Source of the DNA: Chloroflexota bacterium
GTDB lineage: Bacteria > Chloroflexota > Dehalococcoidia > Lucifugimonadales > UBA3495
DNA length: 64,000 nucleotides
Reading direction: 5' to 3'
Assembly: GCA_027623675.1 (NCBI GenBank)
Contig: JAQBVF010000004.1
Span: forward strand, 64,001 to 128,000
Shown here: piece after piece, positions 3,347-51,001 of the stretch
Layout of the letters: each line of letters opens with the position of its first letter
How positions within the stretch are numbered: the stretch's first letter is position 1
The notes under the pieces: generated by a model
What the model was told of the DNA's origin: nothing
The model's input: the letters and a program-made list of their open reading frames with translations, nothing else
The model's database searches: none
Program-made: the position numbers and the translations under genes

Positions 3347-5077
3347 CTACCAACCGACAGCATAGCCGTCGCGGCGGGGGTCGGCGGCGCCGTGCAGGGC
3401 GCCCGTATCCGGGTCAACCTGAATCATCATCTCACTGCCCTGTGCGCCCCAATCGGACATCATGTTCAACCGGTGGCCCCGGCCCTCAAGCCCGGAGCGG
3501 ACACCGGCATCGAACCGGGACTCCATATGCAACAGATTATCACAGACATGGGGAACGTTAGACTCGGTCGGACTGTGGGAATTTCGCCAGCGGGGGGCCT
3601 CCACCGCCTCGGCCACGGTCATGCCAAAGTCGATAAGATGGGTGATCACCTGCATGTTGGTCTGCACCTGGGTGTCCGCGCCAGGGGTGCCGCAAACCAG
3701 CGACAGCCGGCCATCGCCGCCGGCAGCCCCTCCTGCGTTCTCATTGGACGCCGGACCATTGCCTTTGAAGACCATCACCGGGTTCATGGTGTGGCGCACG
3801 CGCTTGCCGGGTTGAAGGCAGTCCACGTGCTCTGGGTCCAAGTGCCAGTAGGTCATGCGGTTGTTCAGCAGTATTCCGGTGTTGCCCGCCACGATGCTGG
3901 ACCCCAGGGAACTCTGGATGCTCTGGAGCTGGCACACCGCGTTGCCCCATCGGTCAACGATCACGAAGCAGGTGGTGTCTTCTTCCTGGACTGCGCCGGT
4001 TGTCACCCGTCCCGCGCTTCCAGAGCCGTTCTGGTAGGCCCAGGGGTCGCCGTGGGCCGGGTCGGCCGCCCGGTTGGGGTCGATGAGCTTGGCCCGCTCC
4101 TTGGCGTACTCCTTGGAGATCAGGCCCTGGGTGGGGACATCGGTGTGGTCCGGGTCGGCCATGTAGGCCTCACGGTCGATGAAAGCCAGCTTCTTGGCTT
4201 CCACCATCAGGTGGATACTCTCTGCTGAGTTGCAGCCCATGGCCTGGAGGTCGTACTGCTCCACCATGTTCAATTCTTGCAGCAACACGTGGCCGCTAGA
4301 GTTGGGCGGCGCTTCGTATACCGTGTGCCCCTTGTAGGTGGTGGAGATTGGTTCCTCCCAACGAGAACGGCAACCCGCCAGGTCTTTCATCGACAGGATG
4401 CCCCCCTGCTCCTGAATGAACCGGACCATCGCCTGGGCAATCTCACCCTCATAGAACGCGTCCCGGCCTCCGTCCACGATGGCCTGGAACGATTTGGCCA
4501 GGTCTTTCTGGTAGATGATCTCTCCCGGCTGGAATGGTTTTCCGTCGTGTGTGAAGATGGCCCGCGATGTGGGAAATTCACACAGCAGAGGGTCGCCGGT
4601 AATCACGCCGGACAAGACGTGCGTCACCGGAAAGCCGTTTTCCGCCAGGTCGATGGCCGGGGCGAACAGCTCGGCCAACTTGAGCGTGGCGTATTTCTCA
4701 TGGGCCGCCATCCAGCCGTCCACCAGTCCTGGCACCGACACCGACATGACCCCCATTTGGGGGATGCCGGTCGCCTGGTAACTTGCCAGGTCGGTGGCGT
4801 ATGGCGCCGCCCCGGTGGCGTTACAGATGTCGATCTTATTCTGGGCTTTGTTGTAGATCATGATGTAGCCGTCGCCGCCGATCCCAGACATATTGGGTTC
4901 GACCACGTTCAGGGCTGCGGCGGTGGCGATGGCGGCGTCAACCGCGTTCCCGCCCTTCTGCAGCACCGACATGCCGGCCTGGGCGGCCAGCGGGTGCCCG
5001 GCGCAAACCATGCCGTTCTTACCCATGACCACGGGCCGGTTGGACTCAAACTTAACGCCGTGGGGTGACTGCACCAT
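3347..5077 (-). CDS. ggt: Gamma-glutamyltransferase family protein
   Basis: GGNAVDAAIA..LNVVEP.MSGIGGD, nucleophile region DTTCFVIVDRWGN, LNNRM, PGKRVRHTMNP, GAADPRRDG. No signal peptide. Confidence 0.93.
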   Translation of the reverse strand: MVQSPHGVKFESNRPVVMGKNGMVCAGHPLAAQAGMSVLQKGGNAVDAAIATAAALNVVEPNMSGIGGDGYIMIYNKAQNKIDICNATGAAPYATDLASYQATGIPQMGVMSVSVPGLVDGWMAAHEKYATLKLAELFAPAIDLAENGFPVTHVLSGVITGDPLLCEFPTSRAIFTHDGKPFQPGEIIYQKDLAKSFQAIVDGGRDAFYEGEIAQAMVRFIQEQGGILSMKDLAGCRSRWEEPISTTYKGHTVYEAPPNSSGHVLLQELNMVEQYDLQAMGCNSAESIHLMVEAKKLAFIDREAYMADPDHTDVPTQGLISKEYAKERAKLIDPNRAADPAHGDPWAYQNGSGSAGRVTTGAVQEEDTTCFVIVDRWGNAVCQLQSIQSSLGSSIVAGNTGILLNNRMTYWHLDPEHVDCLQPGKRVRHTMNPVMVFKGNGPASNENAGGAAGGDGRLSLVCGTPGADTQVQTNMQVITHLIDFGMTVAEAVEAPRWRNSHSPTESNVPHVCDNLLHMESRFDAGVRSGLEGRGHRLNMMSDWGAQGSEMMIQVDPDTGALHGAADPRRDGYAVGW

Positions 5078-5185
5078 GATGATGGTCTCCTAGAAGTACT
5101 CCCCTCTCTCATGGCAGAGGGGGTGGATGGGTGTAGCGATTTCGCAGGCAGGGATGGCGATCCAGCGCGTCCCAGCGAGTCAATG

Positions 5186-5215
5186 AAAAATGGGCCTCAG
5201 AATTCTGAAGCCCAT
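5186..5215 (-). terminator. Probable intrinsic terminator after the HesB-like gene
   Basis: Imperfect hairpin ATGGGC.TCAG-AATT-CTGA.GCCCAT with an A-tract at 5186-5190 (U-tract on the minus strand). Confidence 0.55.
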
Positions 5216-5244
5216 CTTGGTCTCTTTAGTTGTGGTTGCTGTGC

Positions 5245-5619
5245 CTAGTGGCTGCCGCAACCGCCGCTGCCGCAACCGCAGCCCCCGCCGCCGCTGCCAC
5301 AGCCGCATCCGCTGCCGCAACCGCCAGAGCTGGCGAACATGGGGTTGTTAATCACGAAGCCCACCTGGCCGCCCAGGTTCTCCACGTAATCGATCGTCGC
5401 CTCTTCCAGGAAGGGCGCGCTGTCTGAGTCCATGAGGAAGTTGACTCCCTCTTTGGCCAAGACCGTGTCGTCAGCCTGGGTCTCGGTCTCCATGGTCAGC
5501 ATATATTGAAGTCCGCCCGTTTCAGCGGGAATGGCGACCACCCGCAGCGAACCATCAGTTTCACCCTGTTCGTGCATGACTTCCTTGAGCTTCTCGATGG
5601 CGAGGGTTGTTACTTCCAT
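5245..5619 (-). CDS. HesB/IscA (A-type Fe-S carrier) family protein, atypical
   Basis: MEVT..AIEKLK..LRV....GG.QY.L..D..S..FL....IDYVE....GFVINNP, followed by a Gly/Cys-rich tail with CGCGS repeats. Confidence 0.85.
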   Translation of the reverse strand: MEVTTLAIEKLKEVMHEQGETDGSLRVVAIPAETGGLQYMLTMETETQADDTVLAKEGVNFLMDSDSAPFLEEATIDYVENLGGQVGFVINNPMFASSGGCGSGCGCGSGGGGCGCGSGGCGSH

Positions 5620-5815
5620 TTCCTGTTCTCCTTGGGAACTTTCCGGGAGACCGTCTGGCGATCGACGCCATTTAATCTCTAGGTGTTAAAGCTAACACAG
5701 ACGGAAATGTCCAGTCAACGCCGGGACGGGTCTGGCAGAGCCACTCTGATCGATCATTCTAAGTGCCCTCAGGGTGAGGCACGGCGCGTCGGGACACAAA
5801 CGTGTCAGACCCGCG

Positions 5816-5845
5816 TTGACACTCTGTAAAGCGCGTTTCTACACT
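5816..5845 (+). promoter_or_regulatory. Sigma70-like promoter upstream of the phage-head gene pair
   Basis: TTGACA (5816-5821), 18-nt spacer, TACACT (5840-5845). Confidence 0.6.
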
Positions 5846-5921
5846 CAATCTCAGCAGCTTAGACCACATACCGCACAGGCGTCCGGACTTTGGTCCGGAG
5901 ACAGGATCTTGGCAGTTTTCC

Positions 5922-5958
5922 AAGGGGACCGACCCTTAAGGGTCGGTCCCCTTTTTTT
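5922..5958 (+). terminator. Strong intrinsic terminator/attenuator in the leader of the prohead protease gene
   Basis: GGGGACCGACCC-TTAA-GGGTCGGTCCCC, a perfect 12-bp stem followed by T7. No upstream + strand CDS needs terminating here. Confidence 0.85.
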
Positions 5959-6010
5959 GGACCACCACGCATCAGATTAATGAAATTGATTATTGATTTA
6001 AGGAGGGGAA

Positions 6011-6838
6011 ATGCCGACTAGCACCCACCGATCCGGGTTGGACCGCCGCCTTTTGTTGGAGTCGCTGCAAGCCTTCAGCCGGGGCGCCCAAGAAGCGCCA
6101 CTGGTCACCAAGTGGACCCACTTTCCTGGGTTTGAACCAGGGCCCGGACCTGGGAATGAATCGCCAGTTGGGATATCCGCCAAGTACTCGGGTGAAGACC
6201 CGGCTGGCGGAGCGGTCACGTTCGTTCTCTCCACCGACGATGTGGACCGGCACGGCGATATCATCAGCGCCGATGGCTGGGTCCTGGATTCCTACCGTGA
6301 GAACCCCGTACTGCTCTGGGCCCACGACTACCGGCATCCGGCGATCGGCCGGGCGGCTAAATTGTGGGCCGAGCCCCACCGGCTCCTGGCAATCATGGAG
6401 TTCGCCCCCACCGGATTCGCCCAAGAGATCGCGTCGTTGTACCGGTCGGGATTCCAGTGGGGAGTCTCGGTGGGGTTCAAGCCCCTGCGCTACGAAGAGC
6501 GGCGGGACGAGAAGACTGGAGCGTTCCTGGGCCTAAGGTTCTTGGAGCAAGAACTGCTTGAAGTGAGCGCGGTCCCGGTGCCCGCCAACCGCAGCGCCCT
6601 CCGCCGGGACGGTCAGCCTGACCGTGATGCTTTGACCGCGCTATGGCCGGTGCTGGCGTCGCAGGTTGATGAGTTGGTCAAACTGGCTGAGGAGATATCG
6701 GACACGGTGGCCGAACTGGAAAATACCGCCAAAGCCGCCAGACATTCAGCCGTACATGATTCTAAACCGGCTAAACAGTCTGCACAGGCGGTCTCGGTCC
6801 CGGGCCTGATGGAGGTGCTGCGTTCCGGCCGGAACTGA
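6011..6838 (+). CDS. HK97-family phage prohead protease
   Basis: ST.DVDRHGDII...GW.L..Y..NPVLLWAHD....IG, SVGF (catalytic Ser region), ELLEVSAVPVPAN. AAGGAGG RBS. Confidence 0.92.
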   Translation: MPTSTHRSGLDRRLLLESLQAFSRGAQEAPLVTKWTHFPGFEPGPGPGNESPVGISAKYSGEDPAGGAVTFVLSTDDVDRHGDIISADGWVLDSYRENPVLLWAHDYRHPAIGRAAKLWAEPHRLLAIMEFAPTGFAQEIASLYRSGFQWGVSVGFKPLRYEERRDEKTGAFLGLRFLEQELLEVSAVPVPANRSALRRDGQPDRDALTALWPVLASQVDELVKLAEEISDTVAELENTAKAARHSAVHDSKPAKQSAQAVSVPGLMEVLRSGRN

Positions 6839-6964
6839 CCTGAGCTGCTTAGACGAAACGACAGCCAAAGGGATAGACGCACAGAGCATGTGACCCCATC
6901 GCACGACACACGGGCGGTCCACCCTCGGCCCTGGCGGGCAATCAAATCAAACTAGGAGTTGACC

Positions 6965-8014
6965 ATGACTATCGCGGCGCAAGACTTGGAACTGATAAAA
7001 AGGGAGCTGTCCAGCATCCGGGAATTCTACGACTCCAGGATCGACGCGGAGATCCCTCCCCTCAAAGAGGAATTGGACCGCATCGGCGGGCAGTTGAGCC
7101 AGGTGCAGGAGATGTGGCGGGATGGGGAGAAGCGGTCCCTGCTGTCCCGCCACGCCGGCGAAAGGTCCAGGGTTGCTTTCGGAAAATACGCCGGACTGGA
7201 CCATCTGGACATGGCCTGCGTGCGCAGCCTGCTAACCGCCCAGATGCGTGAGCCTTCTGGCGTCAACCCCCGCATGCTGGACGACTGGCAGTCCAACCTG
7301 AAGGCGGCCATGGACTCCACGTCTTCCGGCTCCGGCGACGAACTGGTGGATACTCAAGAAGCCCGGGCGCTGTGGGACGACGTCAATCTGGAGACCTCGA
7401 TCGCTCCCCTGTTCAACACCGTGCAGATGCCCAGCAACCCCTTTCAGATCCCCCTGCAGATGGGCGACGTCAACTGGTATCCCGGCACTGAGAACGTGGC
7501 GACCAAGAGCACCAGCCTGACCACCGCCCGCCAGACCCTGACCGCCTACGAGCTGGTCGCCGAGGTTCCCTGGTCCTACGACCTGGACGAGGACTCGGTC
7601 ATCGCCATGATGGAGGAACTCCGGCGCAGCCTGATGCGAAACGCCCGCGAGGTGATCGACGACGTGATCTTGAACGGCGACACCACCGCAACCAACAACA
7701 TCAACGCCGACGGGACCACCATCGCCAGCACCGACGCGGGCAAGGGCCAATGGCTGCTGGGGTTCGACGGCCTGCTGCATCTGCCGCTGGTGGACAACAC
7801 CGGCCAGAGCATTGACCACAACGCCGCCGTCTCCGATGACATGTTTAACGAGGTCCGCTCCAAGCTGGGCAAGTACGGGGTGCGGCCCTCCGAAGCGGTC
7901 TACGTCACCGACGTGAACACCTTCATAAGGTCGCTCAGCGTTTCCAACTTCCGCACGCTGGACAAATTCGGCCCCCAGGCAACCCTGGCGATCCGGCAAC
8001 CAAGCAAACGTTAA
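6965..8014 (+). CDS. HK97-fold major capsid protein, apparently C-terminally truncated
   Basis: AGGAG RBS at 6954-6958. Helical N-terminal scaffold-like region of about 115 aa, then AMDST..G.G.ELV, a W...E E-loop region, TLTAYEL.A....SY.LDEDS and ID..ILNGD. Lies directly after the prohead protease. Ends abruptly at GPQATLAIRQPSKR*. Confidence 0.82.
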   Translation: MTIAAQDLELIKRELSSIREFYDSRIDAEIPPLKEELDRIGGQLSQVQEMWRDGEKRSLLSRHAGERSRVAFGKYAGLDHLDMACVRSLLTAQMREPSGVNPRMLDDWQSNLKAAMDSTSSGSGDELVDTQEARALWDDVNLETSIAPLFNTVQMPSNPFQIPLQMGDVNWYPGTENVATKSTSLTTARQTLTAYELVAEVPWSYDLDEDSVIAMMEELRRSLMRNAREVIDDVILNGDTTATNNINADGTTIASTDAGKGQWLLGFDGLLHLPLVDNTGQSIDHNAAVSDDMFNEVRSKLGKYGVRPSEAVYVTDVNTFIRSLSVSNFRTLDKFGPQATLAIRQPSKR

Positions 8015-8045
8015 CGGCGGGCTATTTGCCCGCCGTTATTTTTTT
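8012..8045 (+). terminator. Intrinsic terminator at the capsid stop codon
   Basis: TAACGGCGGGC-TATTT-GCCCGCCGTTA followed by T7. Confidence 0.85.
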
Positions 8046-8062
8046 CTTCCGCCGGCCCAATG

Positions 8063-8091
8063 ATGACACCCTTCTGGCTTCGGGCTATACT
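8063..8091 (+). promoter_or_regulatory. Sigma70-like promoter for the enoyl-CoA hydratase gene
   Basis: ATGACA, 17-nt spacer, TATACT. Confidence 0.5.
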
Positions 8092-8146
8092 GGCCTAGCC
8101 AGCCCAAATCGCCTAAGATCGGCTAAAACAATAGGACATCCACGCC

Positions 8147-8935
8147 TTGAACGACCAAATTCTCGTTGAGTCTGATTCTCCCATCGCCACGGTCACCTTT
8201 AACCGGCCCAGCCAACGAAACGCCATCAGCTTTGCCATGTGGCGCCGGTTCACCGACATCATGCAAGCTCTCGACGCTGACCGCGCTATCCGCGCCGTGG
8301 TGATCACCGGAGCCGGCGGCGAATCATTCTCGGCGGGGGCCGACATCCAGGATTTCGATGACTACCGGTCCGACTCGACCAAGGGCCGTGGCTACAACGA
8401 AGCCGTGAACGGGGCTCTCAAGATTCTCTCCGAAATGAACACGCCCACGATCTCGATGATTCAGGGTTTCGCCGTCGGCGGCGGCTGCGAACTGGCCGTG
8501 GCCACCGACCTGCGCATAGCCAGTGATGACAGCCGCTTGGGAATCCCGGTGGGCAAGCTGGGCATCAGTATCGGACACCGCGAGATGCGCGGCCTGGTCA
8601 ATCTGGTGGGCAAAGGAAACGCCATGTACATCCTGCTGTCCGCCCGCCTGCTCGACGCCCAAGAATCCCTGCGGATCGGACTGGTCAACCAGGTGGTCGC
8701 TCCGGGTGAGCTTCACGAATACACCTACAAGCTGGCCTCGGACATCGCATCGTTGGCGCCGCTCTCCCACGCGGTTAACAAGTTAACCATGCAGCAGGTG
8801 CAGAACAAACCCTCCCTGGAGAACCTCACGGCTGAGGAAGAGGACCTGCCCCTCACCCAGTTTGACACCAAAGACTACCTGGAAGGCTACAAAGCCTTCT
8901 TGGAAAAGCGGCGCCCCAACTTTGTTGGGGAGTAA
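8147..8935 (+). CDS. Enoyl-CoA hydratase/isomerase family protein
   Basis: FNRPSQRNAI, FSAGADI, GFAVGGGCELA...DLRIA, EGYKAFLEKRRPNF. Confidence 0.93.
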   Translation: MNDQILVESDSPIATVTFNRPSQRNAISFAMWRRFTDIMQALDADRAIRAVVITGAGGESFSAGADIQDFDDYRSDSTKGRGYNEAVNGALKILSEMNTPTISMIQGFAVGGGCELAVATDLRIASDDSRLGIPVGKLGISIGHREMRGLVNLVGKGNAMYILLSARLLDAQESLRIGLVNQVVAPGELHEYTYKLASDIASLAPLSHAVNKLTMQQVQNKPSLENLTAEEEDLPLTQFDTKDYLEGYKAFLEKRRPNFVGE

Positions 8936-8986
8936 CGTCCCAGACCGGCATCGACTCAGAGGTCAAACCAAGCTGGGAGAGACCGT

Positions 8987-9727
8987 TTGACGGCGCGCGC
9001 ACCCAAGGTCCGGGCCGACCGGCTTTTGTATGAGAGGGGCTTGGCCGAGTCCCGCGAGCAAGCCCAGGCGCTCATCATGGAGGGCGTGGTCTACACTCCA
9101 TCGGGCCGCGTCTTGAAAGCTGGTTCAACCCTGCCCGGAGATGTGGAAATTGAGGTGAGGGGCCGACTGCCGTTCGTGAGCCGTGGCGGCGTCAAATTGG
9201 CCCACGCTCTGGACGAATTTCAACTCGATGTCTCCGGACTGACTGGCCTGGACGTGGGCGCCTCCACAGGTGGCTTCACCGATTGCCTCCTGCAACGCGG
9301 CGCGCAGAAGGTCTACGCTGTGGACGTGGGGCACGGTCAGATGAGCTACGGTCTGCGGCAGGACCAGCGAGTGATCGTGATTGAAAAGACCAACGCCCGC
9401 CACCCCTTTGACCTGCCGGAGCCGGTGGACCTGGTGGTCATGGACGTTTCGTTCATCTCAATTACCATGGTTATTCCCGAAGCAACCCGGCACCTGGTCC
9501 CAGGCAGGTACATCGCCGCGCTGGTCAAACCCCAATTCGAGGCACCCAAAGAACAGGTGGGCCGCGGCGGCGTGATCAAAGATCCCAAGATCCATGCCGC
9601 CGTGTTGGGGAAGATGGTCAACTGGGCCGTGGGGCAAGGCCTGCGAGTCAGGAACATCTGCCGGTCTCCGATACAGGGCGACGCGGGCAACCGGGAATTC
9701 TTCATCCTGCTGCAAAAACCGGAATAG
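8987..9727 (+). CDS. tlyA: TlyA family rRNA (cytidine-2'-O)-methyltransferase
   Basis: S4 domain, VSRGGVKL, LDVGASTGGFTDCLLQRGA, DVSFIS, LVKPQFE, SPIQG..GNREF. Confidence 0.95.
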   Translation: MTARAPKVRADRLLYERGLAESREQAQALIMEGVVYTPSGRVLKAGSTLPGDVEIEVRGRLPFVSRGGVKLAHALDEFQLDVSGLTGLDVGASTGGFTDCLLQRGAQKVYAVDVGHGQMSYGLRQDQRVIVIEKTNARHPFDLPEPVDLVVMDVSFISITMVIPEATRHLVPGRYIAALVKPQFEAPKEQVGRGGVIKDPKIHAAVLGKMVNWAVGQGLRVRNICRSPIQGDAGNREFFILLQKPE

Positions 9728-9786: not shown

Positions 9787-10260
9787 ATGGACGTTTCAGA
9801 GATTGCAGAGATACTCACCGCCAGGGGAAAGACGGTATCCGTTGCCGAGGCCGACACCGCCGGTCTGATCGGCTACATGCTGGGCAGCATCCCCGGCAGT
9901 TCCAAGTATTTCCCCGGCGGCGTAATCGCCTACACCGGCGGCCTGAAAGAGAAAGTGCTGGGCGTGGCCGACGACGTTTCTCCCACCCACGGCACCGTCA
10001 GCAGCCAGATGGCTATCGGAATGGCCAAGGGGGTTCGAGAACTGACCGGCACCGACTACGCCGTGTCCACCACCGGGGTCACCGGCCCCGCCGCCGGCCG
10101 CGCCGGTCTGCCCATCGGCACCTTCTGGATCGGACTGTCGGTGAAGGACGGCGATGACACGGCCATCGAGATTCATCTTGACGGCGACCGCGACGCCTGC
10201 AAGCGCGGCGCGGCCCAAGCGGCCCTGGACCTATTGGGCAAGGAACTCAGCGCCGGTTAG
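9787..10260 (+). CDS. CinA C-terminal/PncC (NMN deamidase) family protein
   Basis: VAE..T.GLI......PGSS.YF.GG..AY....K...LGV, G.VS..MA..MA.G, STTGVTGP. AESCTGG is altered to AEADTAG. Confidence 0.85.
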   Translation: MDVSEIAEILTARGKTVSVAEADTAGLIGYMLGSIPGSSKYFPGGVIAYTGGLKEKVLGVADDVSPTHGTVSSQMAIGMAKGVRELTGTDYAVSTTGVTGPAAGRAGLPIGTFWIGLSVKDGDDTAIEIHLDGDRDACKRGAAQAALDLLGKELSAG

Positions 10261-10295
10261 CCAGATTCGATCAACTGGGCGTTTTTTCGACGGGT

Positions 10296-12644
10296 TTAAC
10301 CCGGCTCCAGGGTCTGCTTGGTCTCGTATGACGCTATGATGCGGTCCCAGTCGTATCCCATTGGAATCATCTTGACCTGACGCCAGGTGTCTGACTGGTC
10401 GGCGTAATGTGCGCTGCCGGGATGACCGGAACTGCCCAGCGGGACCACCCACAGAGAGTTCTCCCAGTTGGACGGATCATAGGAGTAGCGCGCCACCGAC
10501 AGGCTGGTGACCGTGGCCGGCGCCGATGGAGAGTAGCCGCCCTGAAGTGGAGTGTCGCCGTCGCCGCTGGTGGGTATGGCCGGCGGGTCCAGTAACCCGG
10601 CCAACTCCGGGAACGCCGCCGAAAGATTATGCTTGGGACGCGCCTGGTGTACCTTTTCCCACTTCCACTTGTCCATGTCCGCTCCCAACCGTTCTTCCAG
10701 CGTCATGACAGCGGTGGAGAGCGCTCTGGCTACCGCTGTGGGCCAGCTATCGCCTCCCGGCAGCAGCGACCGGTCGTCACGGCCGATCATCGCCACCAAC
10801 TGGGCCTTCAACCGGTTGGAGAACGAACCCAAACCCCGGTCCGCCGGGTGCCAGGCTTCCTCAGCCATGGTTTCCGTTAGATTGGCTTCCAACACGTCTT
10901 TCAGCAGGGCGTCGCGCATGGCGCTGTAGATCGTCGGGGCCACCTCGCCGGCGTCCATCTCCGCGTTCCACGCGAGCAGGCGTTCTCGGGCGGCCGCGCT
11001 GGCCAGGTCGGCGGGGGCGATCTTCTTGACCACTTCCAAGTAAGCCAACGCTGGAATGGAGACTCTTTGGGCGTGCACCTGGGCCATATCCCCGGCCGTG
11101 GGGTGGTCCAGCGATTTCAACCCCGCGGTGACGCGCTTCACCCTGAACTCCGGAGTGAAATCGATGGCTATGTAGTAGGGATAGTCGTCCCCCACCGGGC
11201 GGTTGTTGGCGGTGGCGATGTAGCCTTCCGGCGGATTTATCGACACCGGGAGTTCATCAAATGGAATGTCACCTTCCCACTCGTGTTCGCCGGTCCAACC
11301 GGGAACGGGCAGCCAGCCGTTGACGCGGGACCGGATGGGGATGCGGCCCCGGCACAAATAGCCCATGTCCCCGTGGATGTCGGCGAACAGCAGGTTGTTG
11401 CAGGGATCGACCCAGCCTCGCATGCTATCCACCAACTGTTGGCTGCCGTCGGCCCGCAGCATCTTCCACAGTATCACCGGCCAGGTGGAGGCCTGCTCGG
11501 TTGCCGTGTATTTGAAGGCCAGACCCGACCCCTCGGCAGGGTCTCCCCCAACGATCGGGCCATGCCGGGTCACGGTAACCTTGACCTGGACATCGTTTCC
11601 GCCACGGACCTTGATGTTTTCGTTGTGGGTCTCGGCGTCCAACCACTGGTCTTGGAACAGGTACTTGTTCGGCTCCCCATCCTTGAACCGCTCGATGTAC
11701 AGGTCCTGATAATCGGCGGCGGTGTGGGTGACGCTCCAGCAGACCTTGCCGTTGTGGCCGAAGTGGGGGAAACCGGGCACGCCGGGGAATGACAGGCCCA
11801 CAACGTCGAATTCGGGGCAGGCCACCTGGTTCTGATAGTAGGAGTTGGGCGTATCCAGCGCGCGGTGGGAGTCTCCGGCCAATATGGGTTTGCCGGTGGC
11901 TGTCTCGGCCCCGCACAGCACCCAACTGTTGCTGCCCGAGTCCATCTCGCCCAGGTAATTCAATCCGGCGGCGCCTTGGGACAACTCCCTTATCCCCTGG
12001 TCCAAGGGACCGGGAGAGGCCGCGCCGGGGGGTAGGATCATCAGAGAACCCGGTTCGAATCCGGGGAACAGCTTTCCGGCGGCATCGGGTCCCATCTCAC
12101 GCACCATCCGTGCCCGCCAGAGTTTTGACTCGAACACACCCATGAAGATGTGTCTCACCTTGTAGGCGATCAATCCGTCCCAAGGACGCCACGGCTCTGG
12201 TTCCAGTCCGGTGATGCCGTACTCCGCCGGCATGGCGGTCCCGCTGTCGACAAACGCGTTGACCCCGGCGGCATAGGCGTCAAACACGGCCTTAGTGTGG
12301 GTGTCCATAACCTGGTAGTCGGCTTTGGCGCTGGCCTCCAACCGGAAACGGCGCATCAGCGTGTCCTGGGCCACCGCCGGCTCTCCCACAGCCTCAGCCC
12401 ACCGGCCGGCGCCTCGGCGGCGGTCATATTCCATGTGCCACAACCGGTCCTGGGCGGTTACGAAGCCCTGGGCGAAGAAGGCGTCCAACTCTGAAGCGGC
12501 CTTGATGCGTGGTATCCCGTATCCGTCCCGGTACACCTTGACCGATCCCTCAAGACCCTTCAGGCGCACCGTGCCGGTCAGGTCAGGGATCGCCGATCTC
12601 AGGTCTCGTTCGGTTATCGTCCCGGTCTTGGTCTTGGGAGTCAT
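10296..12644 (-). CDS. Penicillin acylase family Ntn-hydrolase
   Basis: RDGYGIPRI.A....DAFFAQGFVTAQDRLWHM, GSNSW nucleophile, GKPILAGDSH, ATANNR, GSSGHPGSAHYADQ. Start placed at ATG 12644. No signal peptide. Confidence 0.93.
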   Translation of the reverse strand: MTPKTKTGTITERDLRSAIPDLTGTVRLKGLEGSVKVYRDGYGIPRIKAASELDAFFAQGFVTAQDRLWHMEYDRRRGAGRWAEAVGEPAVAQDTLMRRFRLEASAKADYQVMDTHTKAVFDAYAAGVNAFVDSGTAMPAEYGITGLEPEPWRPWDGLIAYKVRHIFMGVFESKLWRARMVREMGPDAAGKLFPGFEPGSLMILPPGAASPGPLDQGIRELSQGAAGLNYLGEMDSGSNSWVLCGAETATGKPILAGDSHRALDTPNSYYQNQVACPEFDVVGLSFPGVPGFPHFGHNGKVCWSVTHTAADYQDLYIERFKDGEPNKYLFQDQWLDAETHNENIKVRGGNDVQVKVTVTRHGPIVGGDPAEGSGLAFKYTATEQASTWPVILWKMLRADGSQQLVDSMRGWVDPCNNLLFADIHGDMGYLCRGRIPIRSRVNGWLPVPGWTGEHEWEGDIPFDELPVSINPPEGYIATANNRPVGDDYPYYIAIDFTPEFRVKRVTAGLKSLDHPTAGDMAQVHAQRVSIPALAYLEVVKKIAPADLASAAARERLLAWNAEMDAGEVAPTIYSAMRDALLKDVLEANLTETMAEEAWHPADRGLGSFSNRLKAQLVAMIGRDDRSLLPGGDSWPTAVARALSTAVMTLEERLGADMDKWKWEKVHQARPKHNLSAAFPELAGLLDPPAIPTSGDGDTPLQGGYSPSAPATVTSLSVARYSYDPSNWENSLWVVPLGSSGHPGSAHYADQSDTWRQVKMIPMGYDWDRIIASYETKQTLEPG

Positions 12645-14603: not shown

Positions 14604-15803
14604 CTACCGGGCGATCCCGTAGGCCACCGCTTGCACTTCCTTGTCCTCGTCTTGCCGCATCCGGTTGCCTAAGGCGACTATCATGGCGCCCATGGCGGTA
14701 TCCGACCAGAACCACTCGTGGATCTCACGGTCGGCGCCGTCGGGCCTCTGGGCCATGCGGGCCTCATAGTAGAAGGCCTTTAGGTCGTCAACACAATAGC
14801 GGATGAACTGGGGAACGGTGAAATCCTGAGGCCGTTCTTTCATGTCGGTCTCTTCGCCGCTGATGTAGCCCTCGAGGAACCGGATAACCCCCCGGAACCG
14901 CCGCTGCGGAATGGTGCTCAGTCCCACGGCTGTCCGCCCGGCGTGGGCGTTGCTCCACTGCTCGTAGTAGGCCCGCAGTGAAGTTAGTTCGTCGGCCGCG
15001 TTAAGATTTTCTTTCTCAGAGGTGTTGGTTCTTTCGGAACCCTGAATCAGGATGTCCGGGACCATATCGTCGGGAAGCTGCTCCAGGACCGGCCCTTCTT
15101 GGCGGTCTAGGAGGTCGAAAGTGGCCTGCAATACCCGGTGCTGGTATTCCGGGTTGTCGGGCTCGCCCAAGGCATTCCCGAAGAAGAAGGGCACGGCCAA
15201 CATGCGGGGCGGTTTCACCCGCTGGGCATGTTCCTCGATCAGGACGATCCCGGTGGTGGTCAGCCCAAACTCTTCAAGCACACGCGCAATCACGCTTACA
15301 GCGTGAGAGCAGGCCGGTCAAGTTGGGGTCAGCAGCACCACCTCAACGCCCTCGGCCTTGAGACGACGCGCGACCTCCGGCCCCGACTCCTCGATGATTC
15401 CAGTCACGTTCCGAAGCGCGCCCATGAAGGAGTAATAGTTGTCCGACAGGGAGCCAATCTTCCCCTGATCGACCAACTCAGGCAGGCGGTCGATGGGGAA
15501 GGTGACGTTGATGTCTCGGTAGATGCCGGTATGGTCGAACCCGATACTGGTGTGGCTCTGGATGATGTCGGCGGCGCCGGCGCTGCGAGGGATGACCCGG
15601 AAGGACGTGTCCCCGCCTCCTTTGTGGTCGGCGATGAAGGGTTTGTCGCCCCGCACATGCAGCCCCGCCGTGGTAACCAGGCCCAGTTTGCTCTTGGACA
15701 GCGGTTTGGCCATGGGGGTCCACGGAGTGTCGTCATGCTCAACGCACGGCCACATCAACATGCTCTTTCTCTGAATCTCGCTCAGGGCCGATAGCTTTGG
15801 CAT
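14604..15803 (-). CDS. PrdB/GrdB-like reductase selenoprotein B homologue (UxxC, TGA 15320-15318, codon 162) with an extra C-terminal domain
   Basis: ORF-track pieces 15318-15887 and 14604-15293 are in one frame, separated by one TGA. Readthrough gives VLLTPT-U-PACSHAVSVIARVLEEFG. PrdB motifs KPLS..KLGLVTTAG, D.SFR.IP, D.N..FP.DRL..L...GKIG, PPR.L.VPF..G..LG.P. AGGAG RBS before ATG 15803. Confidence 0.9.
15290..15306 (-). promoter_or_regulatory. Bacterial SECIS-like hairpin for the PrdB-like gene
   Basis: Minus strand TCACGC-[TGTAA]-GCGTGA, a perfect 6-bp stem. GU in the loop, which starts 17 nt after the UGA. Confidence 0.72.
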
Positions 15804-15858
15804 AACAACTCCTAGATAGCCGACGATAACGGCTAAATTTCCAGTGCGAATCGCCCTA

Positions 15859-15887
15859 AAAGTATGCCCTGGCCCAGGGGATGTCAA
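15859..15887 (-). promoter_or_regulatory. Possible sigma70 promoter for the PrdB-like/VOC genes
   Basis: Minus strand TTGACA, 17-nt spacer, TACTTT. Confidence 0.4.
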
Positions 15888-18057: not shown

Positions 18058-18103
18058 TCCAGGCTGGTTGATTCAGATTCAGCCCGGCCAACGGAGGTTG
18101 AAT

Positions 18104-18733
18104 ATGCCGACTCCAACGTTTGAAGAAGTCTGGGAAAGGCTTAAAGAATTGGAAGGCAAGACCATCATTACGCTGGGAGTCAAACGTCCTAATCGCATCG
18201 TTGGATTCTCGGCAAGCAAAATGATTCGGCAGACGCGAACCAGCGACGGAAAGGGATGGAAGGAACCCACGGTTGTGCCAAAAAGCGCTTTTCGTGCTAT
18301 TTGGGAGAAATTAGCTGAAACCGGGGTTTGCGAGATTAGTGAAGCCAAGGGGGGATGGTATGTTGCAGCCGCATGCCTGGTCGAAGTCCCCAAGTTGGGC
18401 GTCGAATTGCTGCTGGAGAGGAAACATCCAACCATCGAACTCAAAGATTGGCAACGCACGCCCAATGTCGAAACTCGAATGAACAATGTTGACGAGGACC
18501 ATGATGGGTTCGGCGATCTTGACCGGATTGTGGTTGACCCGGACATATGCAGTGGAAAGCCGACCATCCGGGGTACCCGAATCATGGTTACCAATATTCT
18601 CGGGATGATGGCCGGAGGTTACTCGGCAGCAGGCGTTATCGAGAGCTATCCTGAATTGACTAAAGCCGACGTTTCGGCAGCCTTAGATTATGCCTCCCAG
18701 ATCGTAAACGAGGAAAAGGTAATTGCCCGGTAG
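18104..18733 (+). CDS. DUF433 antitoxin-like domain fused to an unknown N-terminal domain
   Basis: C-terminal RIVVDPDICSGKPTIRGTRI.V..IL..MA.G.....I..YPEL...DV.AALDYA. GGAGG RBS before ATG 18104. Visibly more AT-rich than the flanks. Confidence 0.82.
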   Translation: MPTPTFEEVWERLKELEGKTIITLGVKRPNRIVGFSASKMIRQTRTSDGKGWKEPTVVPKSAFRAIWEKLAETGVCEISEAKGGWYVAAACLVEVPKLGVELLLERKHPTIELKDWQRTPNVETRMNNVDEDHDGFGDLDRIVVDPDICSGKPTIRGTRIMVTNILGMMAGGYSAAGVIESYPELTKADVSAALDYASQIVNEEKVIAR

Positions 18734-19124
18734 TGATGAACCGCCGGTCATTCGAGTCCTTCTGGACCAAAATGTTCCGCGGGAGATTGGCACCTGGTTG
18801 GGGCAATCAAAGCCCGGGTGGCAGATCTCCCACACCAGTAGTGTGGCTCTTGACGGGGAGCCAGATTCAGCCGTGTACCGATGGGCACAAGACCACGAAG
18901 CCGTCGTCGTGACGTTTGACGGGGACTTCGCGGACCGCCGTGGATTTGCAGTTGGCATCCATTATGGAATAATTCGTCTTCGAGTGTGGCCCACCACCGT
19001 GGAAGAGACTATCTTGGCATTGCAACGGCTTTTTGAGGCTGTGGCAGACTGCGAGATCGTTGGTGCCTTGATAATCGTAGGACGGAACACCATAAGGGTC
19101 CGCTCGCTTAGACGACCAAGTTGA
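18723..19124 (+). CDS. DUF5615/VapC45-like PIN-domain toxin
   Basis: LLDQNVP..., D..V..WA......VVTFD.DF, GIIRLR. Overlaps the end of the DUF433 gene. Start uncertain. Confidence 0.8.
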   Translation: MPGSDEPPVIRVLLDQNVPREIGTWLGQSKPGWQISHTSSVALDGEPDSAVYRWAQDHEAVVVTFDGDFADRRGFAVGIHYGIIRLRVWPTTVEETILALQRLFEAVADCEIVGALIIVGRNTIRVRSLRRPS

Positions 19125-31247: not shown

Positions 31248-31302
31248 GGGCGTTGAAGATGCGAGTGGATTGAGGCTGCTGCGCCAACCGGTCGGACGGC
31301 GC

Positions 31303-31932
31303 TCACCGAAGGCCTGACACCGTGACCAAGTCCCGGATGTTCTGGTAGGTCACCGGGCCGATCTTGGGAACTTCCTGGACCTCGGCGACGGACTGAAAAG
31401 GGCGGATATTCTCCCTGTAGGAAATTATGGCCGCCGCCAACGCCGGTCCGATGCCCGGGAGGGTGTCCAGCAGGGCGGCGGACGCCAGGTTCAGGTCGAT
31501 CAGGCCGCCGGTCTGACCCTGCGTTTGGGCCGGCGGCAGGTTGGCGATGGGAGGAGGGGCTTCACCGATCTTGGCGATGTAATATTCGGTCTGGTCTACC
31601 ACCCGCAGCGCCAGATTGATGCCGTCCAGATTGGCGTCTTCGGCGGGGCCGCCTGCCGCAGTCAGGGCGTCGGCGATCCGGCTGTCGGGTGGAAGGGTGT
31701 AGACCCCGGGCCGTACCACGGCCCCGTTCACGTACACCCTGACATCAGTAAGCGGAGGCGCACTGGGGGGGAACGGAGCGGCCTGGCCGCTGGCGCCAGA
31801 CTGTGGCGCGATTACCCGGACCGGCGCATTGTCGTCTTGGCGGGCCAGCAAGACCACCGCGCCCAACACCGCGGCCACGGCAGCGGCCACCAACAACATG
31901 AAAGCGATGTTCCGGGCGGTGAGCTCCGGCAT
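31303..31932 (-). CDS. comEA: ComEA family DNA receptor
   Basis: N-terminal TM, SLBB domain (V.GAV..PGVY.L...SRI.DA..AAGG) and HhH domain (LDTLPGIGPALA..II.YR). Confidence 0.93.
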   Translation of the reverse strand: MPELTARNIAFMLLVAAAVAAVLGAVVLLARQDDNAPVRVIAPQSGASGQAAPFPPSAPPLTDVRVYVNGAVVRPGVYTLPPDSRIADALTAAGGPAEDANLDGINLALRVVDQTEYYIAKIGEAPPPIANLPPAQTQGQTGGLIDLNLASAALLDTLPGIGPALAAAIISYRENIRPFQSVAEVQEVPKIGPVTYQNIRDLVTVSGLR

Positions 31933-48624: not shown

Positions 48625-49692
48625 CTAGGCAGCGGTGATGCCGCCTTTGTGGGCCGCGCCCGACTTGATCAAGGTAGCCCAGTCTTTGGGCGTCTTCAGG
48701 GCCTGGAAGATGGTGGCCGACTCGAACCCGCAGTGCATCATGCAATTCGCGCACCGTGGATCTTTGCCCACGCCGTACCTCTCCCAGATGTCCTCGTCGA
48801 AAAGCTCTGCCACGTGTTCCACATGCTCGTCGGCCAGGGGATAGCAGGGCTTTCGCCAGCCCATCACGGTGTAGGTCGGATTGGACCAGGCGGTGCATTG
48901 ATATTCCCGCTCCCCCTTCAAAAAGCTCAGGTATAGGGGGTTATTGTAGAAAGTGGCGCCCTCGGAATTCTCCGGAGACAACAACTCTTGGAACAGCTCG
49001 TGGGACTCCTGGCGGGTCAAGAACATCTCCTGCTCCGGGGCGTCCTCAAAGTCGAACCCCGGCGAGATCATGGAACCTTCAACGCCGATGTCGCTGACCA
49101 TCCGGAACATCTCGGTGAGGTCGCTCACATCGCTGGTGCGGAACACGGTGGAGTTGGTGCAGACACGGTAGCCGCGGTCCAGTGCTGACTGGACGGCCTC
49201 GACAGCCTTTTTGAAGACACCCTGGCGGTCCACCGACTCGTCGTGTTTGGCTTCCATGCCGTCTAGGTGCACCACCCAGCATAGGTACTTGGACGGCGGC
49301 ACCTTGTCCATCACCCGGTCTAGCAGCAGGCCGTTGGTGCAGCAATACACGAAGTATTTCTCTTCGACCAACGTGTTGATGATCTCATTGATCCTGGGAT
49401 GGATGGTCGGCTCGCCGCCGGCGATGGAAACGATGGGCGCGCCGGACTCCCGGACCGCCGCCAGCGCTTGCTCAACGGGCATCATCTTATCCAGCACCGG
49501 TTTGTACTCGCGGATACGCCCGCAACCGATGCAGGCCAGGTTGCACATCTCCAGCGGCTCCAGCATGGTAACCAAAGGAAACTTCTTCCGGCCTTTGAGC
49601 TTGTTCTTCAACAGGTACGCCGCCAGTCTGGCGGATAGTTCCAGGGGTCTCTTGGCTCTCTTCTTCGTGGTGGTTATGTCGGTGGTGGCCAT
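48625..49692 (-). CDS. hpnH: Adenosylhopane-forming radical SAM enzyme HpnH
   Basis: FPLV.MLEPL..CNLACIGCG.I, APIVSIAGGEP..HP, CTNGLL, CTAW.NPTY...GW.KPCY, YG.G.DPRCANCMMHCGFE. Confidence 0.92.
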   Translation of the reverse strand: MATTDITTTKKRAKRPLELSARLAAYLLKNKLKGRKKFPLVTMLEPLEMCNLACIGCGRIREYKPVLDKMMPVEQALAAVRESGAPIVSIAGGEPTIHPRINEIINTLVEEKYFVYCCTNGLLLDRVMDKVPPSKYLCWVVHLDGMEAKHDESVDRQGVFKKAVEAVQSALDRGYRVCTNSTVFRTSDVSDLTEMFRMVSDIGVEGSMISPGFDFEDAPEQEMFLTRQESHELFQELLSPENSEGATFYNNPLYLSFLKGEREYQCTAWSNPTYTVMGWRKPCYPLADEHVEHVAELFDEDIWERYGVGKDPRCANCMMHCGFESATIFQALKTPKDWATLIKSGAAHKGGITAA

Positions 49693-49764
49693 ATCGTAAA
49701 AACCTCGCCGGTTAAAGCTTCCTAATCGGATAGAACGTGATAGCTGATCGCCGTTGGCTTACGG

Positions 49765-50883: not shown

Positions 50884-51001
50884 AGTCCTCTTCTCACTGA
50901 GAAAAGGTTGACCGCAGGGTGGCGGCCCGGGATCTTCCAGCGTGATCGCCTATCAAGCGCGGCGCCGATACATCGGCTTACGATGGTGAATCACGCCTGA
51001 A

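Follow-up and report, generated by a model that had tools for sequence, protein, structure and literature searches.

A prohead protease-capsid gene pair in a Dehalococcoidia genome as the probable relic of a dispersed, GTA-like particle system

The prohead protease and capsid genes of the window (the whole 64-kb stretch of DNA analysed, carried by the 151-kb contig C10 of a 3.07-Mb, 91% complete source assembly, G000) are best read as the relic of an old, vertically inherited, dispersed and co-regulated phage-derived particle system that resembles a gene transfer agent (GTA), is known from its genes alone and appears to be eroding in this genus; we give this reading a probability of about 0.6. 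The pair would be the 5' stump of a longer phage-derived operon whose 3' part was deleted, and a second, unlinked terminase-portal operon would form a set with it. In a fuller version, a GTA-type system native to this Dehalococcoidia order would have scattered head, packaging and, in some families, tail genes, held in one regulon by a promoter-plus-terminator leader with a dedicated antiterminator, the window copy having been recently inactivated; for this the odds seem to us about even. The sequence-only reading had proposed part of a domesticated, possibly genome-dispersed GTA-like system as one option. That idea fits the lineage, because orthologues at the same locus, low dN/dS, congruent trees and portal and terminase genes elsewhere were all found; the window copy is itself broken.

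Protease and capsid genes of the window

The features of the locus are as follows.

5804..5849, + strand: conserved promoter block, -35 TTGACA at 5816-5821, 18-nt spacer, -10 TACACT at 5840-5845 (consensus scan)
5852..5962, + strand: leader RNA, ~110 nt, closed by an intrinsic terminator with stem 5922-5953, a TTAA loop and a T run at 5954-5960 (terminator scan, RNA fold)
6011..6838, + strand: prohead (head maturation) serine protease of the S78 type, 275 aa, apparently intact (PF04586, phrog_80)
6959/6965..8014, + strand: gene for an HK97-type major capsid protein, cut short at its 3' end, 349 aa (from ATG 6965) or 351 aa (from TTG 6959) (PF05065, TIGR01554)
7987..8015, + strand: deletion junction, replacing the last 98 capsid codons and five connector/adaptor genes of relatives (blastn against the relative G002)
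8012..8045, + strand: intrinsic terminator overlapping the capsid stop codon, stem 8012..8038, T run to 8045, 11 pairs of which 8 are G-C (terminator scan)

Both genes are real phage head genes, as had been read from the sequence, with Pfam scores above the cut-offs. The protease reaches 26.4 bits against PF04586 (HMM, cut-off 21) and 2.6e-15 against phrog_80, and stays under the cut-off of TIGR01543 (35.7 against 59); its residues H105 and S153, the presumed catalytic residues of an S78 protease, are invariant in an alignment of 10 sequences, and a search against solved structures returned no match for it. The capsid reaches 30.8 bits against PF05065 (cut-off 24.2), 55.9 bits against TIGR01554 (cut-off 27.5) and 1.5e-12 against phrog_10. 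Good ribosome-binding sites, also part of that reading, precede both genes (AAGGAGG at 6000-6006 and TAGGAG at 6953-6958), and the host-like codon usage claimed for the capsid is borne out by a GC3 of 0.87, with 0.73 for the protease and 0.76-0.85 for the flanks; overall GC is likewise host-like. The flanks are housekeeping genes, again as described: GGT and a HesB-like gene upstream, and ECH, a TlyA-like gene and CinA downstream. The genes comEC (28830-31247) and comEA (31303-31932) do lie in the window, and with the head genes they show mere co-occurrence.

The capsid gene is incomplete. Its product is colinear with nine full-length orthologues (443-445 aa) until about residue 344, after which eight unrelated residues precede the stop, so that the protein ends at residue 349/351, against an orthologue length of about 443 aa. 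It covers only positions 4-123 of the 280 in the PF05065 profile and 37-250 of the 385 in TIGR01554, while the orthologue in G012 covers PF05065 positions 13-266. What is retained is the N-terminal delta/scaffold-like region and the beginning of the mature fold; the C-terminal part of the mature domain is absent, and the missing 98 residues are nearly invariant among orthologues. On its own the truncated protein gives only weak matches to solved structures (best E 0.0015), and a profile built from the aligned orthologues reaches E-values of 4.1e-15 with 8ho3 and 1.1e-12 with 5tjt. AlphaFold2 modelling of a full-length orthologue from a 13-sequence alignment gave a mean pLDDT of 34.1, too low for a usable model.

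Comparison with G002 locates the break. Window positions 6939-7986 align by blastn with 9940-10992 of its locus L017, and 8016-8400 with 15332-15718, so that 4339 bp of G002, among them an insertion sequence (IS) present there, are absent from the window. A metagenome contig of 5240 nt (run X1) spans 7523-9000 with zero differences at a depth of 48. From these alignments, a deletion of about 3-4.3 kb evidently took the 3' end of the capsid gene together with the five connector/adaptor genes. The structural set in G000 is accordingly incomplete: the capsid is truncated, and tblastn against the 91% complete assembly found no homologue of the connector/adaptor, tail-tube or 660-aa genes. The terminator placed after the capsid by the sequence-only reading does exist, with its stem and T run, but it is homologous to the G002 terminator between a 274-aa adaptor gene and ECH, and since that terminator closes the longer operon in relatives, the window copy is a deletion scar, moved beside the stump. 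On the terminal branch leading to G000, the capsid has 14 unique residues against 32 synonymous-like unique codons, which is not clearly relaxed; a recent truncation could explain this, or continuing constraint on the stump. As the capsid fold is partial and the connector genes are gone, the window copy has most likely lost its function.

A second head-gene operon and a shared leader

The statement that only two phage genes are present holds for the window but not beyond it. The proposed search for portal and terminase genes elsewhere finds both on the same contig, at C10:48768-51598 of G000 (portal, PF04860, 6.6e-70; large terminase, phrog_2, 7.2e-40); the distance is 18-21 kb to the protease downstream and 12-15 kb to the start of the window. 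This second operon (Zn-ribbon ORF, large terminase, portal) is headed by the same promoter-plus-hairpin leader as the protease operon and is separated from it by 18 kb of housekeeping genes in the arrangement portal(-), terminase(-) ... protease(+), capsid(+). A D5-primase-like gene also lies between the two loci. Neither the Zn-ribbon ORF nor a small ORF upstream of the terminase leader has a Pfam or PHROGs match, and an ESM Atlas look-up of the small ORF gave no usable match. A 182-aa ORF opposite the terminase was rejected as a gene, its translation being non-coding in look and its conservation that of the small ORF on the other strand. The integrase is indeed missing, as had been noted for the window, from the whole contig: nine tyrosine integrase matches occur genome-wide and none on C10. 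With the head genes split, no integrase on C10 and no tRNA gene in the 64-kb window, the locus does not look like a contiguous prophage with integrase, and non-contiguous capsid and portal genes on a contig lacking an integrase are what is expected of a GTA that cannot move as a unit.

A consensus promoter had been claimed for the protease-capsid pair, and it is there, with 10 of 12 consensus matches (TTGACA-18-TACACT), but a strong terminator hairpin intervenes before the protease start. Because this intrinsic terminator stands between promoter and protease, the unit is not a simple promoter-genes-terminator cassette; and as its 3' end is a deletion scar and its 5' leader ends in a terminator, the description of the pair as its own host-style transcription unit is not supported. 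The promoter block is nearly invariant in five species of the genus, where adjacent intergenic DNA is variable, and G022, from another genus, has a similar promoter whose spacer is conserved. The leader terminator has 14 pairs (10 G-C), and the leader RNA folds at -54.1 kcal/mol (z -5.97), with none of 200 shuffles equally stable. A search of Rfam over 5000-9000 at a permissive threshold found no family near its gathering score, the best being sX14 (33.9 against 80 bits), mainly over the terminator.

Both the extended -35 motif and the hairpin motif occur at just two sites in the 3.07-Mb assembly, the protease and terminase operons, and a covariance model scores at least 42 bits solely at both leaders in G000, G003 and G016. 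Among 41 relatives the hairpin pattern has 30 sites, against one for the reversed control; 23 lie directly 5' of a terminase, protease or tail-tube gene, three are at the matching syntenic position with the gene missing or the contig ending, and four are unexplained. Leader copies without phage genes after them occur in G028. Across the 30 leaders 95.5% of stem cells are paired and compensatory changes are present (one pair is A-U in 13, G-C in 12 and C-G in three), with 25 G-U cells in the stem. In G035 a third leader stands 5' of a major tail protein gene (phrog_10528, 6.3e-33), and the same tail genes adjoin the capsid locus in G025, G024 and G020.

These results suggest how the system may work. 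Both operons open with a promoter of near-consensus sigma-70 type, after which comes a GC-rich terminator hairpin of conserved sequence; with the hairpin in that position, transcription should stop short unless some factor permits read-through, and antitermination by such a putative factor may be the switch. The Q-family antiterminators PF06530, PF03589 and PF06323 have no matches in the assembly, PF06323 having been searched without a positive control. In HK97-type phages generally, a capsid assembles on a portal, is trimmed by a protease and is filled with DNA by terminase before the head is closed. In intact relatives the capsid, with its N-terminal scaffold-like domain, would likewise assemble on the portal, the S78 protease would then trim it, terminase would fill the head with DNA, and the connector and adaptor proteins would close it, with a tail tube added in some lineages.

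Distribution, descent and competing explanations

Orthologues at the same locus, which had been named as a check, are present in the genus and partly in another. The order HesB, protease, capsid ... ECH, TlyA, CinA is shared by G002, G003, G012 and G008, and the ECH side is also kept in G022. Relatives have a longer operon of protease, capsid, small connector genes and the 274-aa head-tail adaptor/fibre-like gene, and in the genus about 19-24 kb consistently separate protease-capsid from terminase-portal. The capsid was not found in nine of 19 relatives; the locus was verified to be empty in G013 and G010, and a protease fragment alone is left in G017. Genes are damaged elsewhere (a capsid stop in G014, a split portal in G002, terminase fragments only in G012), and IS elements lie within the cluster in G002, G025 and G032. 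The sets of G003, G015 and G016 are of the intact type. DUF2460 (PF09343), a domain that occurs in RcGTA-type clusters, was seen in one relative only, G012. Neither a tail tube nor a tape measure gene was found for the genus, nor was a lysis gene, for which the search was unsystematic. Loss and breakage as frequent as this argue against a strongly needed function here, and the best reading is that the system is being lost piecemeal in the genus and that the window copy is a relic.

Across the order the pattern is one of descent. The capsid is present in 112 of 301 genomes, with a single match in 100 of the 112, and the portal in 118 of 301; family tallies of the two nearly coincide, both genes being found in all genomes of some families (f14, 14/14; f5, 5/5), most of others (f12, 10/11; f23, 12/14) and none of f7 (0/13) and f24 (0/14). 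The distance between capsid and portal in closed genomes ranges from 2.6 kb to about 2 Mb. The suggested selection check gave a capsid dN/dS of 0.03-0.11 within the genus; for G000 against relatives the values are 0.04-0.07 for capsid, 0.09-0.18 for protease, 0.11-0.18 for terminase and 0.07-0.13 for portal, with 0.03-0.13 for most flanking housekeeping genes, at dS up to 0.6-1.2. Percentage identities of capsid and of the housekeeping protein PPDK fall together (92/87 in the genus, 77/68 with G022, 66/61 with G037, about 50/54 with G025), the capsid being 65-75% identical across families with PPDK at about 60%. Congruence with the species tree, likewise proposed as a check, is seen in capsid and PPDK trees of 15 genomes, which share a common backbone. 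By these sequence comparisons, then, the gene set is vertically and chromosomally inherited across many families of one Dehalococcoidia order, with a capsid that co-diverges with the host and, in this genus, structural genes under purifying selection, as expected of a GTA. Purifying selection means a function for something, not necessarily a benefit to the host.

Phage databases point the same way. Matches in IMG/VR with 69-100% capsid identity (loci L071-L087, L089 and L107) come from short contigs that repeat the chromosomal gene layout, and wherever such a contig reaches a flank, it is the host's HesB, GGT or SBP. The nearest GenBank phage capsid is 25% identical, and no free phage with this capsid is shown by these sequences. 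More distant versions, at 42-55% identity, have their genes in one piece and may represent genuine phages or prophages. The G032 cluster, whose capsid is 48-56% identical, was set aside as a separate prophage: its terminase is of a different family, and it carries toxin-antitoxin genes and an SPP1-gp7-like gene for head morphogenesis.

An ordinary cryptic prophage remnant, which entered an ancestor, was rearranged and is eroding, would owe its conservation to shared ancestry or to the element's past activity, without any function for the cell. Decay, the null hypothesis of the sequence-only reading, is right for the window copy, given its truncated capsid, its lost connectors and the empty or fragmentary loci in the genus. 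Frameshifts, fragments and empty loci in many relatives, the IS elements in the three clusters named above and the D5-primase-like gene between the loci all favour a remnant, as does the opposed orientation of the two operons, which would result from a single inversion if one of its breakpoints fell between portal and protease. However, neutral decay cannot hold dN/dS at 0.03-0.11 with dS at 0.6-1.2, nor keep a mostly single-copy capsid 65-75% identical across families whose PPDK is about 60% identical; capsid and portal are co-retained by family though unlinked, and the leader is conserved with compensatory changes. We therefore consider a mere prophage remnant rather unlikely.

A phage satellite or capsid-forming island (cf-PICI-like), whose small capsids would depend on a helper phage for their tails, would account for the absence of a tail tube and tape measure from a genus set comprising terminase, portal, protease, capsid, connectors and adaptor. 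It is very improbable in view of the fixed chromosomal sites of the genes, the loci lying up to about 2 Mb apart, the lack of an integrase (on the contig), replication module or att site, and the tail-tube gene that other lineages have behind the same leader. The suggestion of a capsid-derived, encapsulin-like compartment, or of a two-gene unit still working in G000, drew on the HK97-type fold family and on a pair with its own promoter, ribosome-binding sites and terminator. It can hardly be sustained: the set also includes a portal, a maturation protease and a terminase for DNA packaging, which are co-retained with the capsid and share its leader, the capsid lacks its last 98 residues, and the 3' terminator is a deletion scar.

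If the GTA-like reading is true, the case would show clearly that virion genes can stay one regulon once physically scattered. To our knowledge GTAs are known from few lineages only, and from each independent case one can learn how a virus comes to be tamed by cells. In a full-text literature search the papers listed, judged from titles and abstract openings, described neither a GTA nor a domesticated capsid system in Dehalococcoidia or Chloroflexota, so that as far as those titles and openings show, this would be the first GTA in Chloroflexota. The group consists of uncultured aquatic and groundwater bacteria whose routes of gene exchange are largely obscure. The candidate switch, a conserved terminator hairpin, is directly testable, and the intact, damaged and empty loci of the genus form a natural series in which the loss of such a system can be followed. 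A point for annotation is that IMG/VR classes short contigs with this locus as viral when they are in fact chromosomal.

Comparison with known systems

Encapsulins share the HK97-type fold family with the capsid described here, but lack a maturation protease, portal and terminase, all three of which the Dehalococcoidia set has. The T5 major head protein (pb8; PDB 8ho3 and 8zvi) and HK97 resemble it in their N-terminal pro-region and separate S78 protease, and the nearest solved capsid is T5-like; they differ in that its identity to any GenBank phage capsid is at most 25% and that the window copy is without its C-terminal quarter. Cryptic prophages, too, have structural genes that are truncated or absent, carry IS insertions and differ in what close relatives have lost, whereas the Dehalococcoidia set is mostly single-copy order-wide, co-diverges with its host and is under strong purifying selection.

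The leader recalls that of the lambdoid late operon, in which a short terminated transcript from the PR' promoter is extended through Q antitermination. Both have a strong promoter and a close intrinsic terminator before virion genes, and the sequence between the promoter hexamers is conserved. In contrast to the lambdoid case, no Q-family protein was detected in G000, the leader is repeated at at least two unlinked loci and the hairpin stem is itself conserved in sequence, with read-through that we infer.

The closest comparison is with RcGTA of Rhodobacter capsulatus, an alphaproteobacterium. The two belong to different phyla, and the Dehalococcoidia set is known from genes, with a broken copy in the window; NCBIfam assigns its capsid and protease only generic HK97 models, giving no RcGTA membership by sequence. 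Its head module is itself split, terminase-portal from protease-capsid, by up to about 2 Mb, and control is apparently through a promoter-plus-terminator leader at each locus, whereas RcGTA has a promoter-bound activator. The likenesses are extensive: a phage-derived terminase, portal, S78-type protease, HK97-type capsid and connectors; the lack of integrase and replication genes (in the Dehalococcoidia set no integrase on the contig, the replication genes outside any systematic search); additional dispersed chromosomal loci and partial clusters in many lineages; and vertical inheritance over a large clade under purifying selection.

The protease-capsid pair and its deletion junction

The window contains a prohead serine protease gene followed by an HK97-type capsid gene, identities proposed in the sequence-only reading and borne out by Pfam, TIGR01554 and PHROG matches:

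6011-6838, plus strand: prohead serine protease, 275 aa (PF04586, 26.4 bits against a cut-off of 21; phrog_80, 2.6e-15)
6959-8014, plus strand: HK97-type major capsid gene (PF05065, 30.8 bits against 24.2; TIGR01554, 55.9 against 27.5; phrog_10, 1.5e-12)
28830-31932: ComEC and ComEA genes

The capsid ORF encodes 351 aa from TTG at 6959 or 349 aa from ATG at 6965, and its orthologues start at the ATG. The housekeeping flanks were as described, with genes for gamma-glutamyltranspeptidase (GGT) and a HesB-like Fe-S protein upstream on the opposite strand, and for enoyl-CoA hydratase (ECH), a TlyA-like methyltransferase and CinA downstream. Apart from the AT-richer intergenic leader there is no break in the GC profile, and host-like codon usage of the capsid gene was confirmed (GC3 0.87, against 0.76-0.85 in flanking genes; protease 0.73), as was the presence of comEA and comEC in the same window. 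No tRNA gene was found in the 64-kb window and no tyrosine integrase on C10, its contig. In the assembly (G000), PF05065 capsid, S78 protease and PF04860 portal genes each occur once.

Elsewhere in the window, an 1831-aa protein (33929-39424, minus strand) combines DUF4011, an AAA_11/AAA_12 helicase, an MTES_1575 restriction-endonuclease-like domain and DUF3320; we take it to be a large helicase-nuclease of a kind often linked to defence. A toxin-antitoxin-like DUF433/DUF5615 pair (18068-19124, plus strand) lies among cobalamin salvage genes (CobB/CobQ-like, CobO, CobT and CobD). For a 189-aa ORF (15318-15887, minus strand) the sole match is to the C-terminal 40% (210-347 of 347) of glycine/sarcosine/betaine reductase selenoprotein B; it may represent a fragment or an independent domain.

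The capsid gene is truncated: of the 280 positions of the PF05065 profile, only 4-123 are matched. Among 5.8 billion proteins searched, 1283 capsid relatives reached E <= 1e-3; the best 120 of these are 73-100% identical, and nearly all are 442-448 aa long. Alignment with nine full-length orthologues shows the window capsid to be colinear with them to about residue 344, beyond which it has eight unrelated residues before its stop codon; the orthologues run 98 residues further, many of these residues being invariant. Relative to G002, a genome of the same genus, window 6939-7986 corresponds to the capsid gene and 8016-8400 to DNA between the gene for a 274-aa protein and ECH, so that 4339 bp of G002 have no counterpart, about 1.3 kb of which is an IS insertion peculiar to that genome. 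In relatives the absent stretch comprises the 3' part of the capsid gene, four short genes (about 130-154, 82-93, 130 and 131 aa; G003 has an additional 160-aa gene) and the gene for the 274-aa protein, whose N-terminal half is a head-tail adaptor (phrog_442, 4.7e-14) and whose C-terminal part is tail-fibre-like. By tblastn, these genes have no copy elsewhere in the 91%-complete G000 assembly, except for a 57-61-residue match on contig C35 to the fibre-like part. The terminator at 8012-8038, previously assigned to the pair itself, corresponds to the one that in G002 comes after the 274-aa gene and ahead of ECH.

The deletion junction is genuinely present in the population sampled, being bridged by a 5240-nt contig from sequencing run X1 (7523-9000, zero differences, depth 48), although this check is not independent since X1 may be the source of the assembly. 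By a crude count, which is not a statistical test, the capsid terminal branch of G000 carries 14 unique residues against 32 synonymous-like unique codons. This exceeds the counts for G016 (0/23) and G008 (3/30), is close to that for G002 (14/26) and is far from neutral, so the truncation is probably recent. Judged from its gene content, the G000 copy of the system has presumably ceased to work.

The terminase-portal locus and tail genes

That only two phage genes are present holds within the window, but portal and terminase genes, which the sequence-only reading had proposed to look for elsewhere in the genome, lie on the same contig 18-21 kb upstream of the protease, just beyond the window edge. 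Positions are those of C10, with those in the upstream region L006 in brackets:

48768-50129, minus strand: portal, 453 aa (PF04860, 6.6e-70)
50120-51598: large terminase, preceding the portal, 492 aa (phrog_2, 7.2e-40)
51478-51684 (L006:7475-7684), minus strand: Zn-ribbon ORF, 69 aa, two CxxC pairs; first gene behind the terminase leader
51874-52059 (L006:7871-8137), minus strand: small acidic ORF, about 61-63 aa from a conserved Met, just upstream of the terminase leader

The two loci are separated by genes for an MFS transporter, a mycothiol-type isomerase-like protein, Tag glycosylase, ADH, PrpD, QueE and QueC. A 340-aa ORF in this interval (C10:58430-59452; L006:14430-15452) matches D5-type primase/helicase in its C-terminal part only (PF03288, 8.1e-05; phrog_1156, 4e-11). 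In G017 the equivalent position holds a 62% identical ORF, a lower level of conservation than that of the surrounding genes; the ORF may be a further remnant of the ancestral element.

The reading frame of the Zn-ribbon ORF differs from that of the terminase gene, whose start it overlaps. Its conservation extends from the genus to G025, and it may represent a substitute for the small terminase, a regulator or an N-terminal domain that has been frameshifted. The acidic ORF, a candidate regulator, is 81-89% conserved among members of the genus and 46-68% beyond it, in further genera and families, and is retained in G017 despite deletion of terminase and portal. Both are also terminase neighbours in other genera and families; neither matched Pfam or PHROGs, and the acidic ORF had no Atlas match. 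Portal matches in at least a dozen genomes of several families carry a single in-frame TGA (e.g. G046, G156, G217, G222, G264, G277, G279, G092, G205 and G296), which may be a terminase-stop overlap at the portal N-terminus or something else.

A third leader occurs in G035, 5' of a gene for a major tail protein (phrog_10528, 6.3e-33) behind which lie genes encoding 173, 98 and 660 aa; homologues of these tail genes adjoin the capsid locus in G025, G024 and G020. The whole set is contiguous in G025 (terminase, portal, IS, protease, capsid, ..., tail tube), an order probably close to the ancestral phage-like one. With these queries the tail-tube gene was not found in the window's genus. A possible further member of the system is a 660-aa protein of G012 (L018:15787-17769), which has a non-contractile tail sheath TIM-barrel (PF23845, 2.1e-157) fused to DUF2460 (PF09343, 1.4e-65). 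Its gene follows one for a solute-binding protein, 4.7 kb downstream of the capsid, and searches of G000, G013 and G010 gave no homologue.

Inheritance, selection and decay

Same-locus orthologues, dN/dS and congruence with the species tree had been suggested as checks on domestication. Protease and capsid follow the HesB-like gene in G002, G003, G012 and G008, as they do in the window, and G002 also retains the ECH-TlyA-CinA side. The agreement is partial in G022, of another genus in the same family, where the capsid cluster again precedes ECH-TlyA-CinA. The terminase-portal pair has its own conserved place, 19-24 kb off, in G002, G003 and G005. The genes are under purifying selection (Nei-Gojobori, dS 0.2-1.2; pairwise and partly saturated), with capsid dN/dS of 0.03-0.11 within the genus. 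Between G000 and relatives, in which genes were taken as longest-ORF calls, values are 0.04-0.07 for capsid, 0.09-0.18 for protease, 0.11-0.18 for terminase and 0.07-0.13 for portal, compared with 0.03-0.13 for eight flanking genes and up to 0.28 for two others (MFS and MDMPI).

Capsid has co-diverged with pyruvate phosphate dikinase (PPDK), a housekeeping comparison gene, their identities to G000 following one another (capsid and PPDK, respectively: genus, 87-92% and 83-87%; G022, 77% and 68%; G028, 68% and 60%; G037, 66% and 61%; G025, G035 and G032, about 47-51% and 52-54%). Maximum-likelihood trees of the two from 15 genomes, both quick searches, agree in their backbone (the genus clade, its sister G022, next G037 and G028, and a G025 + G035 clade; SH-aLRT 93-100 for the named clades) without supported conflict, and capsid branches are shorter within the family.

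Across the order, capsid was found in 112 of 301 sampled genomes, as a single match in 100, and portal in 118 of 301. Family tallies are near-equal for the two genes (f1 10/14, f5 5/5, f12 10/11, f14 14/14, f17 7/14, f23 12/14, f7 0/13, f24 0/14 and f27 0/8). In closed genomes they are 2.6-5 kb apart in some families (e.g. G165, G232 and G319) and 9-35 kb in others; the spacing is 0.1-2 Mb in many (e.g. G024 615 kb, G267 722 kb, G076 1.8 Mb, G312 2.0 Mb). Capsid and portal are co-retained even when unlinked. No free phage with this capsid was found among IMG/VR or GenBank phage matches, the best of 890 GenBank phage capsid matches being 25% identical. Mostly short contigs make up the 38 IMG/VR loci. 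The 19 with the closest capsids (L071-L087, L089 and L107; 69-100% identity) have the protease-capsid-connectors-adaptor layout of the chromosome, with HesB (sometimes GGT) upstream and a solute-binding-protein gene downstream where the flanks are reached, and are likely to be false viral calls.

Within the genus the system is decaying. Capsid was not found, with the query used, in 9 of 19 relatives (62-92% complete), which are kin and hence not independent and, like the relatives at large, include many incomplete MAGs. An empty locus in close relatives, which the sequence-only reading regarded as counting against domestication, was seen in two of the five of these nine whose locus was inspected. 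HesB is directly followed by a solute-binding-protein gene and ECH in G013 and G010; G017 has only a frameshifted protease fragment, its other locus being reduced to the small acidic ORF and the leader; and in G007 and G006 contig edges are too near the locus to tell presence. Elsewhere, the G014 capsid has an internal stop, G002 has a split portal and an IS behind the capsid, and in G012 the adaptor gene is split and the terminase survives only as fragments. By these searches, G003, G015 and G016 show no evident break in terminase, portal, protease or capsid, all of which they have.

A shared promoter-hairpin leader

The promoter reported upstream of the protease is a near-consensus site, but a strong terminator intervenes before the gene:

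5816-5845: promoter-like site, TTGACA, 18 nt, TACACT (10/12 consensus matches)
5922-5953 and T run: strong intrinsic terminator, 50 nt before the protease start

The leader RNA (about 110 nt) folds at -54.1 kcal/mol (z -5.97; 0/200 shuffles as stable) and matches no Rfam family at its gathering score. The terminase operon likewise has, upstream, a TTGACA promoter that shares the extended -35 motif, then a hairpin of the same stem (GGGAC-N-GACCC ... GGGTC-N-GTYC) and a T run. Each motif occurs twice in the 3.07-Mb assembly, both strands searched, with no occurrence outside these two operons. The protease promoter block is near-invariant in five species of the genus, the surrounding DNA and mid-leader being variable, and G022 retains the hexamers and much of the spacer.

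Among 41 genomes (G000 and 40 relatives) the hairpin pattern gave 30 distinct sites in 19 genomes, and a reversed control one. Twelve lie directly 5' of the protease-capsid operon, ten of a terminase gene or fragment and one of the major tail protein gene; three occupy the corresponding syntenic positions in cases of gene deletion or a contig end, and four (one in G020, three in G031) are unexplained by these contexts. In G000, G003 and G016 a covariance model built on 30 leaders reaches at least 42 bits at no site other than the two leaders, and in G022, G024 and G028 it likewise recovers those of the protease and the terminase. In G028, two further promoter-hairpin copies near-identical to its terminase leaders (C1:1833097 and 3352195; L126 and L133) have no phage genes behind them: some 600 nt with no convincing ORF come first, then ordinary metabolic genes. 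These copies may be relict leaders or small RNA genes in their own right.

The main alternative is that these genes are an ordinary cryptic prophage without cellular function. This accounts for the decay in the genus, but leaves the long-term constraint, the single-copy, family-wide retention and the conserved leader at dispersed loci unaccounted for. From the sequence evidence we infer instead that the gene set would make DNA-filled particles under host control, in the manner of a gene transfer agent.

In the 30-leader alignment 95.5% of stem cells are paired, the central pair being A-U in 13, G-C in 12, C-G in 3 and G-U and U-G in one each, and 25 G-U cells lie near the stem base. The G-U pairs are more readily explained by an RNA stem than by a symmetric DNA operator, and a T run on one side only fits a terminator. 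The window hairpin has a double change, C-G in place of the A-T of the genus, which indicates that pairing was maintained on the G000 lineage. A population variant at the variable hairpin position, C>T at 5929, would turn a C-G pair into U-G (depth 10.8 of 77.2 in run X1 and 7.8 of 17.5 in X2). The interval between hairpin and first gene (about 25-50 nt) has no space for a second promoter, so expression must read through the hairpin. The leader would thus act by regulated read-through, as a processive antitermination or attenuation switch. None of three Pfam families for Q-family proteins was matched, one of these having no positive control. The switch would resemble the late-gene leader of lambdoid phages.
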